Positions 25,901 to 39,779 are shown, numbered from the stretch's first letter. The stretch is DNA of 64,000 nucleotides from Eremomyces bilateralis CBS 781.70 (GCA_010015585.1 ML975154.1); one strand, 5' to 3'. The notes: a model not told the origin generated them from the sequence alone. Made by a program: numbers and translations.

Positions 25901-26222
25901 CAGCAGCAAGTCTGAGGCTTCGAATTCAGGTCTACGGCCTTGTATTCAGGTCGGTATAATGATAGTAATCGCTAACTTTCCGAGATCTAGGGTTCTTCCA
26001 CCTACGTTAAAGTGTCTTCTCCCCAATGGCCGTCATCGCCAACTGCGCGACATCTAGGTTACAACCGGAGAATATTGCGAGGAGTGGGTTACTACGCCAA
26101 GACGCAATATCCTTAATTAACTATTCCCAGCAATATGGATTCTGAGCAGGTCATTTGTCTGGATACTTGATCAGAGAACATCACCGCTTACTTCTATATA
26201 GGGACCGAACATTCGCGTATTG

Positions 26223-28812
26223 ATGGAACGACAGCGGGGTCATGAAAGTTCCGAAGCAGTCGAAGAGAGCTTGATCTCGACAACAGATGTGTACTCATCA
26301 AATGGAGCAGTCACCAGCATTTCCAGTGAGTTGGGGCTTGATCCTTCGGTCTTTGGATCGCCGAACCCTTCCATCCGTTCATTTTCTCATTCCTCCTAAA
26401 GCGGGAGCGCATTGCCTAGCCGTCCCTCGCAAGCCCGCACGGAAGGGCTCCTAACGACAGAACCGGACACTCCAACAGGGAACTTGGGTAGGGCGCTTTC
26501 CCGCTCTCATGCCTCACCAAGTCTAGCACTGTCAAATCTTCTGCCCGTGAACGGCACGCCGGACAGCAGAGGGCTGGAGGACTCGGTGGCTTACACGGTG
26601 CTATATACGGAAGATTCTAGCAGCAGGGATAGCGTGGTACGACTCTCGGCGGATCGGTTCGACGAGATTCAAGTCAAAAACTCGGACAATATCCTCGAGA
26701 TCGAGAAGCAATGCTCGGTTGCTTCGCAGCCTTGCCAAAACTCACGCATCACACTAAGATCACCGATGACGTAATGTCGATCCATAGTCCGTATATATTG
26801 GGGATTCTCCCGGATCTCATCGGATATTATCCAAGCGAGGGCCTTTACAGCTCAAGCAATCCAATGCTGGGCCAATAGCGCGCCTTGCGGATCGAAAAAC
26901 CCTACAGGATGTTCGGAATCGACGCTATCACACGGATGAAGGATGCTCGAGAGAAATATGAACAGATTGCTGAAGGCGGCGGGCTAGATCCTGAGACGAT
27001 CGCTCAGTACGGCCTCACCGCCCAGCATTTGTTGATGCTTGAAAGAGTTCTGGACCATGCCAGAAGTACCAGGATCGCTGATGAGGAGAGAAGGTACGAA
27101 AGGAACCCTCCCGTTGCGACCTTCGACATGCTTTGGCTCCTCTTCCGGCCGGGTGACGTCGTCTATGCGAAGATTGGCGATGACTTTATCGCCTGTCGCG
27201 TTTATCTTCTCATTTGGGACCTCGAGAGAGACCCAAGCGAGCATAACGTTTCGATTAAACTCTGATATCTCGATTATGATGGTAAGGATTCGCTGTATGT
27301 CTTATTATACGTTCCTAGCCCTATTTAAAGCCAAGCGTATCAACCGTGTTTGGCATTCTGTTACGGTTTCGAAGCTTCATGACGAGAGGAAGATCCCCGA
27401 TCTCGACATCTATCCGATGAAGTTCGCTGTGGACAATGAATTTGGGAAGCGGCTGGTCGAAAGAGGACGCAAGTATTTCCAGCTACTAGCACCTCATGCC
27501 CCACAAGCTGAGTACAACGGTTATGCATACCGACACCGAGGAAGGCAAGAGAAGTGCTTCGTGAGCAACCTCAAACTAACTGCAAACGATGAACTCCTTT
27601 TAACAGTATCATGGAAACACCATCGTTGACCCTGCATTCAACATTTATGAATATGGCCCTGATCGGGACGATGAAGAATGGGTCTCGAAGGACGATGTTT
27701 TGAACGATAAGTATTCGCGCCACAGTGATGTAAAGGGCTTCGCGGACATTGACCCAAAGTCGGGGGACTTGCATTTGGCGGATGACCATTACAGGCTCAT
27801 GCCGAGGTGGATTCGAGTGTTCTTGCTCGGGACAAGGACTTGGTGTAAGCTGCAACGACAACCTTCAGGCGAAGGGATCTAACCAGTATGTACAGCCTAC
27901 GTGATGTGGATGATATCAGTGACTGTAAGTGCCACCTGTCATACATTTAACCTGCACTTCAAAAGCTCATCATCTTGCCCTAGATGTCCCCAGCCGCTCA
28001 ATCATCGATACTCTGGTCATTGATGAGACGGATCTGCGGAGTTTGAAGGCTTTTACAAGGGTGTCTTATCGGACGTCCTTTGGCTCCAGTGGCCATAGGA
28101 CATTCTCAATTGACCCAATCAAGGGGAAGGCCGAAGGCAGAGTTATTTTATTGCATGGTGCGCCGGGGACAGGGAAGACATATTCGGCCGAATGTTTAGC
28201 TGAGTGGAATGGTTTGGTCACACCAAGCGATTCCGAGTAATCAATGCTAATGAACCGGAATAGAGCGACCACTTCTGCGCCTGTCGTGTGCTGATATTGG
28301 TATTTACACATGGACCATTGTAGTTTGACTAATACTGCAGCTGACACATGCCAGGCACTGAGCCAGAAGATATTCAAGCAAGGCTGAACAAATGGTTTAG
28401 ATACACGTACCATTGGAACTCATTTCTGCTGATTGACGAAGCCGATGTCTATCTGCATCAGCGGTCCAGTAGAAGCACCTTGAATGAAGAAGCAATCATA
28501 TCCGGTATGGTGGGACAGTAACACACACTGATCAAAATATTTCTAACAATGGCGATTGTAGCGTTTCTACAGAGCCTTGGGTACTACCGTGGCATTATTT
28601 ACCTTACCACGAACCGCGTCCTCAAGTTCGATGACGCCATCCACAGCCGCGTATCACTGATTTTGCAATACCCCAACCTTGGTGAGAAAGAAAAGAAAAG
28701 GATACGGGAGCAGCATCTTACTACGCTGGAAAACACCAAGCGGTACGACATATGGAAAGGGGCACGGAGTACATTCGAAGAGGACATTGCTCAAGGTAGG
28801 ATAGACAGGTAG
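26223..28812 (+). pseudogene. Disrupted fungal AAA+ ATPase (family with a DUF7025-like N-terminal region)
   Basis: Colinear motifs IHSPYIL..LIGYYP, IEKPY, TFDMLWLLFRPGDVVY, LVERGRKY, DPIKGKAEGRVILLHGAPGTGKTYSAEC (Walker A), LLIDEADVYL (Walker B), YYRGIIYLTTNR..FDDAIHSRV; recognisable introns. In-frame stops TAA 26397, TAG 26876, TGA 27263 (*YLDYDG) and a frame change near 26740-26770. Confidence 0.85.
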
Positions 28813-28920
28813 TGGATTTTTTCCAAGCATCCAAGCTCCAAGATGGGGAGTTCTCCGCGAAACCAGATGTTAATGATAGTCATTTGTTTCCTTCGCGTCG
28901 CTAGCCGGCATGCATCCCAC

Positions 28921-30174
28921 CTATATTTCCCTGAGGGCTGGTTCGAGCGATATAATTGGTATATCAGCGGATTCTCCTTGATACAGATCCAGATTCGGTG
29001 GTTCAGGGGGCCTTGAGATAACCCTGTCATCTAAAATCCTAGATATAAGGAGAATTTTGGCCTTGTTTTCTTTGACACAACTGTCCAGTGTGTTGAAAAT
29101 GCTTTCCCATACGTCGGTGTCCTCTATCCCTTCTAGGGTCTCAATTCCGTACAGGATGAGGTACGGGAAATGTCCTTTCCTGTTCCACTCTGATACAGTT
29201 TCAGTTGTACTCTCTTCTCTGGTTGGCGTTGGAAGAGAATTCGTCCAGTTGGCCATCACGCGCTCAAGTGCCGGTAAAGTTGTATTGCAATCACCTTGAG
29301 CGCTACAAATTGCCAGCAAGGGGACTTGGAGGATAGAAAGCTCATCGGCAAGGAAGCTGCCGATTCACAGTAACTTCTCGTCTTCGACCGTGCATTCGAT
29401 CCTAATCATTGATCCAGACGATTCCCGCAGCCATTCCCCAATGCTGATTAAGATGCCACTTCGGTAATTGCATCCGATCCCGCAACACTACGATCATGGC
29501 ACAGGACTTCGCACATCATATCTGTGTGGACTGCCTGGAGTGATACGATACCGTCTTGCTTCTTGTCAACCGAAGCTAGAACTTTGCTGATGTCCGATGC
29601 TTTTTCGTTTCTAACACGATGGTGCTCGTCTTGTTTTGCCAAGTCCTTATCAACCTGCTCCAGAATATCCTTTCGATGACTTTGATCCGCTTGTCTGTTT
29701 CAGTGTTAATCGTGACATTGAGATTTGACTTGGGCCGTGAGGCTACGTATCAAGGGAGGAGACGTATGTCTGAAGGAATTGGAACTCGAAGTTCAGCACA
29801 GCACCAAGGCTCGAAAGACTTCCTTGTATCTCTCGGATCTCCGACTCTTTCATTTTCAAGTCAATCTGCTTGATAATTGGTACATTCCTCAGGGTGCTCC
29901 ATCGCTGAGGGTTGCCAGATCTGTCACACATTTCTTTAACGGACTCAGATATCCTTTGCTCCTCTCAATCCATGTATCCACGTTTTGATTACTCGGCTGA
30001 GATCTTTGATATTCCTCTATCTGGTCCAATAGAGACACCAAATTATCTACCCATGCCTTTGTATTTTGAAGCCTTATTTTGCCTTGCTTGTAAGTCACAA
30101 ATATGGCGCAAAATGCCCTCACTGTCGTCGTAAGGGCGAGGCCCGGCTGCGGTGGCCCCAAGTATCTCTGCCAT
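28921..30174 (-). pseudogene. Disrupted NLR-like gene: helical N-terminal domain plus degenerate NACHT-like domain
   Basis: ATG 30174 gives MAEILGATAAG, then a 1-nt frameshift to LALTTTVRAFCAIF... (hydrophobic N-terminal helix typical of fungal STAND/HeLo-like N-termini). Downstream EWLRESSGSMIRIEC, YLILYGIETLE (Walker-B position) and KILLISR (cf. KILVTSR); several stops and frameshifts; no GxxxxGK seen. Confidence 0.55.
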
Positions 30175-31288
30175 AGCCTTGCGATTTAGCAAAGTGCTTG
30201 AGAGGAACTTGGAGACAAGTCATGGCTCCGGCGCCTCATCGCAGGTATTCATATACGACGATGGTATGAGGCGCTTCTCGCAGCCTTGCGCAACCCTTGA
30301 CAGCATGTATGCAGTTGTTATGCAGCTTCACACTGAAAGCGGGGCTGTCCAGCCTCACCAGCTGAAATATTCATGTGACAAGGCAACCATTAAAATGATT
30401 CTTCGGTATTTGACCCGAGGCCCCTATTCGGAGATTTCAAGAGGCGTTAATAGAGGAGTTCTAACAGGATTCTCTTGAGCACATGGATGCACTTCAGAGT
30501 GTTTATGCACATGGAAAATGTTGGGAGTTGTTGCCTTGTTGCATTATCCATAGTCACTATGGCAACCATCAATGGTAGTTAAACCTTAATAAATACCTAT
30601 TCATTCCGTATTGGTACCTCAAAACCAATGGGGAGCTTTCTTTGGGCACAACCAGTTCCTTGATAACACATACAATATAAGTAATACATGAGACCAGGTC
30701 TGATCACCCAGATCCAGGCTGAAACACCCTGATCAATTTCAAGACATCACTAGGAACTGGCGAATGTGGCCCAACCCAGACAAGCTTTCTCTCACACCTT
30801 CAAATATCTGATGGTTTGGAACTATTTTACCTAGTAGTAAAAGATTTAGGGTTACCATAGATATTATTGTGTCACGTTTTCCCTTTTGCGGTGTGCCATA
30901 AATGAAATGCACTGATCCCACTGAAATTGCTATGACAGCTTCAAGGGCCAAGAACAAGCGTCAACGAATGAATTTAAGAATTTCTAATGTAACAATACCC
31001 TTTCGCTATTGAGTTAGTGCCTCTTTCAAGACAGTTTCTGTCTAAGGCGCTGCTTAGGTCTTGGTTTGGTTCTTTAGGTTTTGACAAGTTCGTTCACTCA
31101 TTGTCTGGAAGTAATTGAAAACCAAAACTAAACACTGCCGTGGTACCTCAAATTGTCTTACAGAGACTTAGCCATCCATTACTCGAAGACGTTCTTTAAA
31201 TTTGATAGTTGCTCAACATATATTGATCTTTATATATATCTGATTATACGCCGAAGACCAATCATCATTAATTTCCTACCTTCGCACA

Positions 31289-35070: not shown

Positions 35071-35538
35071 CTCTTTGCCAAGCCGTTACCAACGTCAGAC
35101 TAACTGCAGGCAATAAAGCCAGGCAATCGACTGGTTTTCATAAGGGCTAAGAATACCTACTGTAGGACCCCGGCTAGGGCCCCGGCTAGGGGATCTTCAC
35201 TCTTCAGCCTCTAGCGTTTAGGTGGGAATTGGGATTGTTGGTACTCCGTAATACTGCTATTTTGGATATTTCACCATTGTCCGTTTCAGACTTTCAGACT
35301 TGGTTTCAATTTTACCTGTCTACGCGCCGTTCGACGTTTATAGTTCCTTCAATTCCATCATTGTAGGCAGAATACCTTGCCTTCATTTCTTTTGCATCGC
35401 GTGCGTGTTGCTCATGCTTTTGCGTGGTTATGGTGTTCATTTCTTGAGTTGGTTTGTTGTCAGCTGCGAGCCGAGCCGCTATTGAAGAATTTCATATCTT
35501 ACTGCCGTCGTGCTGGCACTGCAGAGTGCTGACGTCCT

Positions 35539-38500
35539 ATGTCGCAAGGAATGGCTCTCAATCCAGCGCTATACGATACCTCAGATGGCAGCCAGAAAGA
35601 TGATGGACAGTATGAAGCGGTATCCTCTGCGTACAGTGCTGCACCGTTGAGAACCACCTCCTTTCGACCATGGAAACCTTTTTCGCTTCGTCCCCCGTTC
35701 TTAATTGGCACAATCGCCATTTGTTGCGCATTAATTGCTGCCCTTATAGTCCTTCACCTGCGCAGTATTCGCGATGATGGACTCCTTTTTGGAGTGGACA
35801 TCAATGACCTTCCATCGTCGAAAACATTTGGATACTTGATCCTGCCGACCATCATTTCGGTTCTGTTCAGTTTAATGTGGGCATGGATTGATTTGGATAC
35901 GAAACGGATCGAGCCGTTTTACCAACTTTCGACATCTGGGGGGGCTTCGGCGAAGAATTCTCTCCTCCTTCATTATCCAGTGGACTTCATGGCCTCGGTG
36001 CCAATAAATGCCATCAAGAACAAACATTCCATGATATTCTGTGCCTCTCTGGCAATTGTTCTGGTTTTCTGGGGTCTCACTCCGACGCAGGCAGGCATAT
36101 TCTCCGTGGAAACGATCAACAAGACTTTGTCCGTTCCTATTCTATCCTCCACGTCCTATGTTCCTATTCCTGAGCAGAAAGAGCTGCTGTTGATGGAGGA
36201 GGTGTATTCGGCGGCAAATATACTATGGTGGAATGAAACTCTCCCCGAATTCACCACACGCGACTATGCCCTCGCCCCTTTTGCGGTGGAACAGCCACTC
36301 TCAACCGTGGAAGATACCGACACATTGACCGGGGAAACTCGCCTTTTCAGCCTCGACATTTTTTGCGAGCAGGCAGTGGTCTCCGGGATCAACATCACGA
36401 ATGGCGATTCGGATGGCCGGCTTACTAGTTCCTGGGGATGCGACTTTCAAAGGTTGTATCCACTCGGTCCGGGAATGAATGTAAACGAAACAGACAAGAT
36501 ATATTCTATGTTTTATGTTGGGTTCTTTAGCCCCGAGGGGTTTTCCGATTATTATTTGTCGCCCTATTGTCCGAAAAATGAGTCCAGTACATTTTTGACC
36601 ATGTCAGCAAAGATCAAGGTACCCAAGGCGCAATACGAGAATTTCACCAATGCAGAGAAGCTCCAGAATGCCGATACGACTACACTCTACTGCCGACCTT
36701 CTTATTTTACCCAACGCGTGGAAGCCACAATATCTCTCTCTGATAGGAGAGTCATTTCCAGCAACCCTCTCGGACCAAAAGAGCCTTTTCCGGCAGAGAT
36801 GTTCAATACTACCGACTTCGAAACAAGCATGAACCAAGGGACAGAGGCAGCATCGGCTGGCAGGAGTAACTTCCCTACCAACTCGTGGCCTGGACAAAAG
36901 ACCAAACTCGCCAACACACTTTTCGATTCCTACTATACGCCGCGTTTGGTACCCTTCGCTCTCGGGGCCACCATGCTGCCAGAAGACGATTATATGGTGC
37001 CCGAGGTCTTACGTAAGTCTTTCGAGTCCGCTTACCGAGTGCTGTTTGCGCGCCGCTTGGCTAGCATACTCAAGGACGACCTCGATCCCGCAACTCGAGG
37101 AACGGGCACAAGAACTTACGGTGTTCAAGCCATTGTAACGGTGCCGGCGTTTATTGGCATCGTCGTTGGTGTCTTGGGCGTTATCTGCATCCTCTCATGC
37201 TGTTTACTCTATATGTCTTTGACACGACATCTGAAGCTCGAGAGAGATCCGTCGACGATATCTGCACTGATGGATATGGTGGCCGGCCAAGACGCCGCAC
37301 TGGCGGCCTTCAAGGATTTGGACACTGTCCCCGTCAAGAACTTGGAAACCGCGGTGGAGGATAAAAAATTCCATATTGCATACGATCCAACAAGCGCAGG
37401 GCTGAAATTGTCAACGGAAGACGAAGGCTGGAGAGGGACGGAAACGTTGCTTCCTGGCAGTCAAGCGCACGGTCGCGGGGAGTGGAAAAAAGTACTACCA
37501 AAAGAGCTCACCTTAGTTGCCGGGACGATATTCTTCATTTTCCAAATTGCCGCGTTCGGTGTCATCCTGGGCATTTATCTGTGGTCTATCTCCGCGAATG
37601 GTGAGTCCCAACATCACTGTTCACACACATCTTTGCGTTGGGGTTCCGAATGGGGAACACTATTTCCGGCTCCCTTGCACTTTGATGCTCCTCCAGTCGC
37701 CTACTTGCAGTTATCCAAAATGTCGTGGACTGTTGAATTAATCATTGAACTTTTCTGCCGTGGTTGGGGATGGGTAACTCGCAGGCGGAGATTGTTTCAA
37801 TTCTCCTTGCCGTCGATCCTCTACACTTCGATGCCCACCCCTTACGCGCTTCGGTCCCATTTTCGCTTTCATTACTCTTTATTGGAATGGGATTGACACG
37901 GCCACTAACTTGTCTAGGCCTACCTCTTCCTTCCGAAAACCAGTTTGTCCGCCAGTTTGTCACCAACTACCTTCCAACAGCTTTAGGAGCACTAATCGAA
38001 CCGGCCTGGCTGGTGCTCAACCGATTGCTCTGCATGCTGCAGTCATTCGAGGACATGCGGAAAGGATATGCAGAAGCAAAGTCATCCATCAAGGCCGACT
38101 ACAACTCTTACCCACCACAATTTTCCATTCTGAGATCGATTCGGAACAGACACTTCTTGTTATCTGCAGTCTGTGTCATGACCCTCCTGGCTAACGTACT
38201 CCCTGTCGCCCTCTCCAGTCTGTTCTACGAGCAGACGGTGCCTGTTCCCGCTGGTTCCACTTTCGTTCAGCCTTTCACATCAAATTTCAAAGCCTTGAAT
38301 GGAACGGGACAGGAATTCAATTTCATTCCACAGTATATGGGACAGGGGAGTACGACTCAAGATGCATTCTATGTGGCAATGTCGAATATCACAGCGAAGA
38401 CTCCGCTGCCACCATGGGCAGACGAAGCATACACATACATTCCGTTCGAGGGCCCCTCTGTAGAGACCAATATGTCATTCACGCATCGTGCAAAAACGAC

Positions 38501-39779
38501 ATATTTCGGAAGCAAGCTCGATTGTGCGCCAGTCGAGAAATCCGGGCCAACATCATACCAGGCTTCGCTTGATCGATCAAGATTCTCCAACCCCACTGCC
38601 GCACCCATGTTCCAGTTTGCGCTGAACGTAACATTCACACAAAATGTACAAGAGCCGGTGACATGCGTGGCAAACATTAGTACCAACGTCGCCAAATCGA
38701 ATGGACCGTCCGCCCTCGAGTTTACAGCCCCTTTGTTTGGAGGCCCGGATGCATCAGACGAGGTCTCCCGGCTCTGCGAATCCCGTTTCCTCGCAGGATG
38801 GCTCCGGGCAAACGTCGCTGAGGGCGAGAAAGCCAAACCTCGAGACCCTCCGCCCTTTTCCGTCACTGACAGGAAAGAGCTTATCATGGCATGTGTGCCT
38901 ACAATTGTCACTGGTGAGGCTGACGTCGAGGTTGATACGACGGGACGAGTGCTTCGTAGACATTCCGTCCAGCTATCCTCGGATATAGCGTCTCATTTCA
39001 CCACGACACCGCTGGATCTCATACAGCAGGCGAACCAGTTTATTGTTGGCAACGGAGACATGGTATATTCTCCGGGTGAAGAAACAAGACGGGCCGCCGC
39101 CGCTGTTTGGCACAATGACACGTTCCCTTCCGATTTCACGAATTACCTGATGACGCGCACTCTCAACAATAGTGCGTTCCTCGATCCTGCTACGCCTCCT
39201 CCCACATATGCGGACATCAGCAACCCTTTCACATCCCTCTACTCAACCTTATTCGCGATTCTTGTTGCTATTAACCAAGACCTTTTGCTCGTTCCTGCCT
39301 CTTCAACACCCGCTCAATCGCTTCCCGTTGTCGCGGGACTGACCAACCGACCCGAGCGTCGACTTTTCCTTCATCGCTCTATGGTCGCCCTCGCTCTCGT
39401 CATCCTCGCCGTGTACGCATTCACCACCGTTCTGGTGTACCTTAAGGCCAAACAGAAGTGGGGGTTCCTCCCACGTTTGCCGACAAGCATTGCGAGCATC
39501 TTAGCCTACGTGGCTGCAAGCACCGCCGTCAAAGCCAAAACGGGCATTCAAATGGCCCCGAGGCCGCGGGGTGAGAGGTATGGATTGGGAAGGTTTACCG
39601 GAAGCGATAACCGGCCGCATTGGGGAATTGAGACGGCCGACCGTATTGAACTGGACGCAGTGGATACTGAGATTTTGGGGATGAAGCGGAGAGCAACGAC
39701 ATGGAATGATTGGACTCGGCGAGGAAAATTGGCAACAGGGGAGTCGGAGATACGTTTGCACGAGATGGGGACCACGTAG
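35539..39779 (+). CDS. Large integral membrane protein with two DUF3433-like modules (~1307 aa)
   Basis: Exons 35539-37600 and 37918-39779 (317-nt phase-1 intron GTGAGT..CTAAC..TAG). Repeated module LPTIISVLFSLMWAWIDLDTKRIEPFYQLS...AKNSLLLHY and LPTALGALIEPAWLVLNRLLCMLQSFEDM...AKSSIKADY; DPSTIS / LPTSIAS motifs. Confidence 0.88.

Follow-up and report, generated by a model that had tools for sequence, protein, structure and literature searches.

The locus considered here, at positions 26223-30174 of a 64,000-nucleotide stretch of the genome of Eremomyces bilateralis CBS 781.70 (GCA_010015585.1, ML975154.1; the whole stretch is called the window), contains two genes with broken reading frames that run towards each other: a gene for an AAA+ ATPase on the plus strand, and a gene with NACHT-like landmarks and no P-loop on the minus strand. 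A preliminary description, made from the sequence of the window, proposed that they form a coupled module lost as a unit. The question is whether the two genes belonged together or became neighbours by chance.

Weighing the evidence, we consider it probable, with confidence only a little above even, that the locus is a decayed copy of a conserved two-gene fungal module. In related loci, the predicted pair of an AAA gene and a gene for a P-loop-less STAND (signal transduction ATPases with numerous domains) protein is linked, is specific to one clade of AAA genes, and shows co-varying distances in its two members. Both genes of the window carry several disabling lesions, and the context and motifs of the minus-strand gene suggest that it is the partner of the AAA gene beside it.

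Family and structure of the plus-strand gene

The plus-strand gene (26223-29016) had been described as a fungal AAA+ ATPase gene, and the searches agree. Two of its pieces match DUF7025 in Pfam and a third matches at an AAA-type Walker A. The first DUF7025 match scores 40.6 bits when the frame is read through a TGA codon (32.1 bits before it; Pfam cut-off 27) and covers profile positions 3-67 without a gap, while the second half of the domain covers positions 66-99 (E = 2.4e-4). The Walker A exon resembles Cdc48, AFG2 and p97 (E from 0.0024) and also matches AAA_22 and AAA_16; its match to PF00004 stays below the cut-off because the AAA domain is split over several exons.

Relatives of this gene, collected from metagenomes (see below; loci are numbered L001 onwards), share 35-60% identity with its AAA exons and have the same exon layout. 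The AAA pieces align with L077, L001, L078 and L014, and the intact relative L077 carries DUF7025, AAA and AAA_lid_13 in one frame of 784 residues. The plus-strand gene belongs to the fungal DUF7025 + AAA + AAA_lid_13 ATPases (PF22942, PF00004, PF23232): it shares with them DUF7025, Walker A and B, sensor 1 and exon layout, and differs in its nonsense codons, its frameshift and its unrecognisable lid. Even at E up to 10, AAA_lid_13 was not recognised when 28564-29013 was read through; in intact relatives this domain scores 40-119 bits. A weak G..RN motif in the frame at 28810-29016 aligns with the lid of the homologues, and we read the missing lid as decay of a family member rather than a sign of another family.

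The structure of the gene was compared with contigs of three sequencing runs; a fourth run, X4, contributed none. DNA contigs of runs X1 and X2 agree with the window but may be its own source and hence are not independent; X3 is a second sample of the same organism, whose nature as RNA is a guess. The parts of the gene are as follows.

26223-26875, plus strand: N-terminal part of the AAA gene, from ATG 26223; frame 0 to about 26710, then frame 2
26879-27560, plus strand: DUF7025 domain, split by TGA 27263-27265 and a 37-nt GT..AG segment (27282-27318)
27561-27606, plus strand: probable intron of 46 nt (GTGAGC...CTAAC...CAG), whose removal restores the frame and the homologous reading
27843-27895, plus strand: problem intron; a good donor at 27845 leads to the wrong frame, a weak donor at 27843 is in frame and loses a conserved W
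27925-27983, plus strand: intron of 59 nt (GT..AG; one spliced X3 contig, side 125)
27984-28211, plus strand: Walker A exon with an intact GAPGTGKT (Pfam, matches to AAA proteins, regular expression)
28212-28354, plus strand: two introns (28212-28263 and 28300-28354) around a 36-nt exon (GT..AG, cut one place to the right; X3 contig of depth 2.1)
28355-28809, plus strand: exons with Walker B (DEAD type), sensor 1 (TTN) and the arginine (tblastn, alignment)
28505-28561, plus strand: probable intron with good splice and branch signals, whose removal restores the homologous reading
28810-29016, plus strand: TAG stop, then an open frame, a putative degenerate remnant of AAA_lid_13, overlapping the last 96 bases of the minus-strand open reading frame (ORF)

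Three apparent breaks of the gene (27925-27983, 28212-28263 and 28300-28354) are introns, since X3 contigs join across them and the X1 and X2 DNA contigs run straight through. Two to four further breaks are probably introns as well. Splicing leaves the AAA core without a break between about 27984 and 28809, and all of Walker A, Walker B, sensor 1 and the arginine are present in it. The only X3 contig that covers the problem intron is contiguous over 27800-27924, that is, with the intron retained. The intron read as 27845-27895 has good splice and branch signals yet yields the wrong frame, and it may be a splice-junction lesion.

Decay of the plus-strand gene

The preliminary description saw multiple stops and frameshifts in both genes; several lesions do stand in each of them, but many of the breaks in the plus-strand gene turned out to be introns. 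Four lesions of this gene are firm: (i) TAA 26397-26399, in frame with ATG 26223, (ii) a switch of the coding frame, from 0 to 2, at about 26711-26740 (near 26.72 kb), where both frames align with the homologues L077 and L001, (iii) TAG 26876-26878, in frame and inside a 9-residue window-specific insert just before the conserved N-domain, with no GT between about 26793 and 26876 able to open an intron over it, and (iv) TGA 27263, inside the DUF7025 match and opposite a W of the closest relative, L077. Less certain are the 37-nt segment 27282-27318 (a tiny intron or an insertion), the intron 27843/27845-27895, and TAG 28810 with the unmatched lid frame that follows. The piece 26403-26710 has a codon score matched by none of 164 wrong-frame open stretches of the window, which served as the null set. 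The X3 contigs leave 28515-30019 and 26709-27611 uncovered, and TAG 26876 and TGA 27263 fall in the latter gap. This is a pseudogene, and with X3 taken as RNA it is still transcribed and spliced.

It could be argued that the genes are alive, with breaks that are assembly errors, strain polymorphisms or cases of recoding, and with an AAA gene that functions, for example, in an N-terminally shortened form. The open AAA core and the three introns correctly spliced in X3 contigs would fit such a view, as would the possible dependence of the two agreeing DNA runs on the window. We nevertheless consider it very improbable. Long clean frames occur elsewhere in the window, in genes for an F-box/WD40 protein, a Crb2/Rad9-type protein (1775 codons), a DUF1996 protein, two DUF3433 proteins, a dephospho-CoA kinase and an M16 peptidase, and for this reason we regard the assembly as sound and the broken frames at 26-30 kb as a local feature. 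The plus-strand gene has its four firm lesions and no recognisable lid, the minus-strand gene has three to five breaks (see below), and the AAA branch of the window is five times as long as the median.

A partner gene linked to the AAA gene in relatives

Environmental metagenome contigs were scanned with a degenerate sensor-1-to-arginine pattern, which gave 118 loci; for 80 of these, flanking sequence of up to 10 kb is present. In tblastn searches, the AAA exon pieces of the window match 116 of the 118. An earlier pattern search of metagenome contigs with the AAA exon had produced 473 matches, none of which was confirmed. The ORFs scanned, each of at least 215 residues, numbered 239; 233 came from the 37 loci of at least 6 kb, and 6 were AAA homologue ORFs from shorter loci. 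The relatives among them show the family build of DUF7025, AAA and AAA_lid_13.

In nine loci, the gene beside the AAA gene matches Pfam NPHP3_N (the P-loop region of NACHT-type proteins) or DUF7708. A profile of these nine partners added six neighbours, in L008 (5e-19), L004 (2e-15), L040 (5e-12), L069, L028 and L062, and a second round added that of L010 (3e-8), which brings the number of loci with a STAND/NACHT-type partner to 16. All 16 partners lie at most 5.5 kb from the AAA gene, and none was found in 128 kb of outer flank; the probability of this proximity under uniform placement is 0.0065, in a modest test with a small outer zone.

The partner is divergent (head to head with the AAA gene) in 11 of the 16 loci, convergent in three (L075, L028 and L069) and downstream on the same strand in two (L040 and L010). 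The tail-to-tail arrangement, presented earlier as that of the module, is therefore found in L075 but is not the usual one. The survival of the linkage through changes of orientation argues for co-inherited matched alleles over a mere shared promoter.

The Walker A GK[ST] is missing in 13 of the 15 partner copies that cover the site; the Walker B aspartate is invariant and further motifs are common. The P-loop-less partners comprise about 450-600 residues, and their frames stop soon after the fourth strand, without repeats. The partners in L028 and L069 are ordinary NOD-like receptors (NLRs), in which ankyrin repeats come after a normal GAGKT P-loop. DUF7708 was found on the upstream exons of the partners in L010, L026, L055 and L062, while the first exon of the L075 partner gave a sub-threshold match to PigL_N (PF17111; E = 1.9e-4). 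The first exons of the L040 and L075 partners, used as jackhmmer queries, retrieved no relatives, not even each other.

The structure of the L075 partner was predicted with AF2 (alignment A1; mean predicted local distance difference test score, pLDDT, 62.5, and 64-89 in the core). The model has a beta-alpha-beta architecture with the strand and helix order of P-loop NTPases, and matches ORC/Cdc6, TnsC, Avs3, ZAR1, Dark, NRC2, CED-4 and MalT (Foldseek E from 5e-4; Z 8.8-11.6, and 9.4-11.6 for ORC/Cdc6, Avs3, ZAR1, Dark and CED-4). This model gives the partner a STAND-type fold that has no P-loop.

The AAA genes paired with a P-loop-less partner all group together in a tree of 58 AAA cores, within a single clade of 23 rows (Shimodaira-Hasegawa-like approximate likelihood ratio test, SH-aLRT, 86). 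Adequately flanked AAA genes are paired in 12 of 13 cases inside this clade versus none of nine outside it (Fisher P = 2e-5), as expected if intact homologues are adjacent more often than by chance; this count is tempered by a rule for adequate flanks that was set after the data had been seen, and, like all linkage counts here, it was drawn from AAA-centred loci only. Under a stricter rule (at least 5 kb upstream), 8 of 10 genes inside and none of 10 outside are paired (P = 7e-4). As for congruent histories, the distances between AAA cores and between partner cores do correlate (Mantel r = 0.32, a value reached in none of 5000 permutations; after removal of near-duplicates, r = 0.27, reached in 12 of 5000), a correlation that shared species history could inflate. 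The partner evolves far faster than the AAA gene (median end branch 1.75 versus 0.38).

The unpaired exception in the clade, L007 (3081-5422), has no partner in 3.6 kb upstream or 3.1 kb downstream. In its sister, L010 (8022-10381), a DUF7708-bearing partner lies 3.8 kb downstream on the same strand.

The AAA core of the window falls in a 10-row subclade (SH-aLRT 99) together with L040, L075, L020, L047, L050, L077, L021, L060 and L013, and all five flanked members of this subclade are paired. The N-domain piece of the window matches six loci only, all of them in the same subclade. The favoured placement of the AAA gene of the window, as judged from these comparisons, is inside the paired clade.

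Several side observations concern the range of the family. Single-frame AAA proteins in bacterial or phage-like surroundings were also found through the sensor-1-to-arginine motif; judging by the neighbouring genes, about seven loci are bacterial or phage-like, with bacterial neighbours in L006, L032, L033 and L064. In L014 (8339-10312), the AAA protein is encoded near ERF and YqaJ recombinase genes and matches DUF7025 (E = 1.5e-7). The DUF7025 N-domain may thus extend beyond fungi. In addition, L028 (9371-16513) and L069 (6523-10886), which lie on one contig about 20 kb apart, hold near-identical AAA genes, each tail to tail with a canonical NACHT + ankyrin NLR gene.

Structure and decay of the minus-strand gene

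The remnant of the minus-strand gene extends from ATG 30174 to its last stop at 28921-28923, which is 108 bp from the present stop of the plus-strand gene (28810-28812), close to the distance of about 100 bp given earlier. The following parts can be distinguished.

29747-30174, minus strand: first exon, putative N-terminal helical domain, from ATG 30174; frame changes near 30150 and 29900-29925
29695-29746, minus strand: candidate intron of 52 nt (GTAGCC...TTAAC...CAG), between the N-terminal domain and the NTPase-like part
28921-29694, minus strand: second exon, with a helical linker, a GEWL motif, a frame change at about 29450-29500, TGA 29365-29367 and a putative NTPase-order core without a P-loop

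The reading consists of at least five pieces in changing frames. Its frame breaks number at least three to five, among them two or more frameshifts in the first exon, another near 29450-29500, and the in-frame TGA 29365-29367. In L075 and L040, too, the partner has an exon boundary that separates the N-terminal domain from the core, as at the candidate intron 29746/29695. The remaining junctions are too close together to be introns. A lesion-free model with six GT..AG introns (44-87 nt) was rejected, having poor splice sites and losing the best-scoring frame.

The gene is a real former coding sequence, since the codon usage of its pieces is coding-like and that of the antisense ORF is at the null level. 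Four pieces are in the top 0 to 5.5% by window codon usage, measured against the same 164 null stretches; for the pieces 29892-30146 and 29746-29925, 0.6% and 0% of these, respectively, score as high, and the antisense ORF is at the null median. No coding signal extends past the stop 28921, and the piece 28794-29030 is at the null level. The gene ends about 40 residues past strand 4, without repeats.

With respect to domains, the lack of a visible P-loop noted earlier was confirmed, as no [AG]xxxxGK[ST] occurs in any frame of the minus strand at 26000-30400, apart from one misplaced chance match with two stops. For the N-terminus, described earlier as an NLR-type helix, HeLo, HeLo-like and SesA (PF14479, PF17111 and PF17107) gave no match in two N-terminal pieces at E up to 10, and the resemblance of this part to a helical domain of the DUF7708/PigL_N type was seen by eye only. 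Nor does the gene have a NACHT or NB-ARC match in Pfam or WD40, ANK or TPR repeats, and the downstream ORFs belong to no family.

These results bear on the suggestion that the minus-strand gene is the wreck of an ordinary fungal NLR gene, whose P-loop was lost by a small deletion and whose C-terminal half was lost by truncation against the AAA gene. Canonical NACHT-ANK genes do converge on AAA genes in L028 and L069, and in fungi it is common for NLR genes to be pseudogenes with stops, frameshifts and differences between strains, according to the available text of PMC13449251. We consider this origin improbable: there is no Pfam match to NACHT, NB-ARC or NPHP3_N and no repeat remnant downstream, the coding signal ends at 28921, and the clade of the window does not include the AAA genes of L028 and L069. 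Moreover, a family that is naturally without P-loop and repeats would explain the same features with no extra events.

Is the minus-strand gene the partner of the AAA gene?

We infer that the minus-strand gene is the partner because its position, orientation, N-terminal style and absent P-loop match those of the L075 pair, in which the two genes are convergent, 287 bp apart, and the partner has a PigL_N-like first exon and no P-loop. In hhalign comparisons with the partner family, the stretch YLILYGIE...KILLIS aligned with the segment from Walker B to strand 4 in the expected register (P = 0.026 and 0.15, weak values that come from overlapping alignments).

The chief alternative, which we regard as rather unlikely, is that the two genes are chance neighbours: the AAA pseudogene lost its partner or never had one, and the minus-strand gene is unrelated, lineage-specific and decayed alone. 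The minus-strand gene indeed has no significant match, in the partner family or elsewhere. It has no family in Pfam, NCBIfam or PADLOC at E up to 10, with only chance-level rows, and its 188-residue read-through gave 0 matches among 1.84 billion representatives (HMMER). A hidden Markov model of the partner family, run with filters off, did not match it, and blastp and phmmer comparisons with 15 partners found none. Word-index searches with a 147-residue piece and the N-terminal read-through (E up to 10) also gave no match; these blanks say little on fungal coverage, because the AAA N-domain piece found nothing in them either. In hhalign, the N-terminal pieces aligned in short or misplaced stretches (P = 0.023-0.86). 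The motif LILYG has Y at the invariant Walker B aspartate of the family (hhhhDG), a loss that could be due to decay.

The convergent layout is that of a minority of pairs (3 of 16), and the nearest AAA relatives with downstream flank, L021 (1.7 kb) and L060 (2.0 kb), have no convergent partner there. The AAA branch of the window is long (1.95 versus a median of 0.38), and the clade of the window is not fixed by the approximately unbiased (AU) test, in which moving it to the other half of the tree was not rejected (log-likelihood difference 18, p = 0.082). All of these points, along with the weakness of the hhalign values and the limits stated above for the linkage counts and the distance correlation, weigh against the locus being a decayed module.

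Nevertheless, several points speak against chance neighbours: the minus-strand gene has what looks like the build of the partner, with a putative helical N-terminus, a GEWL-type linker, an NTPase-order core without a P-loop and no repeats; it sits exactly as the partner of L075 does; and hhalign placed it twice in the expected register. Furthermore, identity between partners is only 13-21%, so that a broken copy might easily go undetected. We therefore prefer to view the locus as a decayed module. For the coupling of a pseudo-NTPase with an AAA+ protein, as first proposed, the linked pairs, the partner without a Walker A lysine and the correlated distances speak in its favour, but the family call of the minus-strand gene in the window is no more than probable. 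The several lesions in both genes are consistent with their loss as a unit.

Other searches with the minus-strand gene gave the following results. The PDB sequences yielded only gamma carbonic anhydrase (E = 0.27), and no tblastn relative was found among the 118 loci at E up to 0.001. For the 147-residue piece, the Atlas features suggest AAA_16, AAA_22 and AAA_35 clusters (0.82-0.91), which is a lead only; for the N-terminal piece the Atlas returned unnamed bacterial clusters with a recognition of 1801, below the useful range. An AF2 model of the 147-residue piece without an alignment (pLDDT 35.7) was not used for fold searches, and its order of strands and helices is weak support.

Proposed mechanism and significance

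In an intact pair, the first gene would encode an AAA+ ATPase in which DUF7025 at the N-terminus is joined to a classic AAA core and a fungal AAA_lid_13 lid. The second, judging from intact relatives, would encode a protein with a helical N-terminus (mostly DUF7708; PigL_N/HeLo-like in L075) and a STAND/NACHT-type alpha/beta core. Without the Walker A lysine, the partner would probably be unable to bind or hydrolyse nucleotide itself. It may be a sensor or an executor on which the AAA+ protein acts by assembling, disassembling or holding it. The N-domain would be the likely contact to the partner, as in other classic-clade AAA proteins. We tentatively suggest that the nucleotide-dead partner is driven or reset in its assembly state, in trans, by the AAA+ ATPase, a mechanism that we hold to be a good deal less than evenly likely. 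Once one gene of such a pair was broken, the other would be free to decay.

A more far-reaching and still more doubtful proposal is that intact pairs represent a 'split NLR', in which a STAND protein with a death domain gave up nucleotide binding and a neighbouring AAA+ motor drives or resets its assembly. They might then form a fast-evolving module for non-self or stress surveillance in filamentous fungi that P-loop surveys have missed, with the window holding a dead copy and turnover proceeding by joint loss. A recurrent, co-varying pair of an AAA+ ATPase and a P-loop-less NACHT-type protein would add a different design to the catalogue of fungal NLRs, a switch with its energy source on a separate protein, and would for the first time place the large, uncharacterised DUF7025-AAA family in a functional context. 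The copy in the window matters mainly as an example of the joint decay of two genes.

A module of an AAA protein and a P-loop-less NACHT-type protein has apparently not been described so far. A full-text literature search returned no paper for DUF7025, DUF7708 or AAA_lid_13, and the related literature found in it, supplements lying outside the search, described no such pair in the text available.

Comparison with known systems

Paired NLRs of plants, such as RGA4/RGA5 and RRS1/RPS4, are arranged head to head, divergently transcribed and co-inherited, and one member can dispense with its own P-loop function. Both members of these pairs are NLRs, whereas in the pairs presented here one member is a classic-clade AAA+ protein. 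Assemblies of the ORC/Cdc6 type, which mix active and inactive AAA+ subunits, include the best structural matches of the partner core (Z 11.6) and provide a precedent for nucleotide-dead subunits. They show no sequence kinship with the partner beyond the fold, and no winged-helix DNA-binding part was seen in the partner; the comparison is thus one of mechanism only.

Fungal NLRs (HeLo-like/PigL_N PF17111, then NACHT or NB-ARC, then WD40, ANK or TPR) resemble the partner family in having a helical N-terminus followed by a STAND-type core. The partner family differs in lacking the Walker A lysine and repeats, in its size of about 450-600 residues and in being tied to a separate AAA+ gene. In the available text of PMC13449251, NLR surveys demand GxxxxGK[ST], and they would skip the partner family because NLRs are defined by this motif.

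The known partners of fungal NLRs are, in the accessible portion of PMC9815663, effectors that share amyloid motifs with the NLR. The amyloid-signalling pairs het-S/NWD2, HRAM, sigma and PP described there are similar to the present pairs in consisting of adjacent cooperating genes, one of them NLR-like. In pairs of the het-S/NWD2 type, the gene next door encodes an effector, pore-forming or otherwise, which has a short amyloid motif in common with the N-terminus of the NLR, as far as this portion of the source goes; here the neighbour is an ATPase, and a shared motif was not searched for.

Setting of the locus in the window

Neither gene bears a signature of repeat-induced point mutation (TpA/ApT 0.59-0.63; (CpA+TpG)/(ApC+GpT) 1.26-1.38). 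A repeat search revealed no repeats between or around the two genes, and neither has a paralogue within the window. The 24 ORFs around the pair (24.1-35.1 kb) match no Pfam family except for one chance-level COX7C row.

A 114-codon open frame on the plus strand (30134-30478) lies head to head with the start of the minus-strand gene; it belongs to no Pfam family and is touched by thin X3 contigs in the 30020-30621 bins. Further downstream, two consecutive long frames on the plus strand (35533-39779), each with DUF3433, represent either a tandem pair or a single intron-containing gene.

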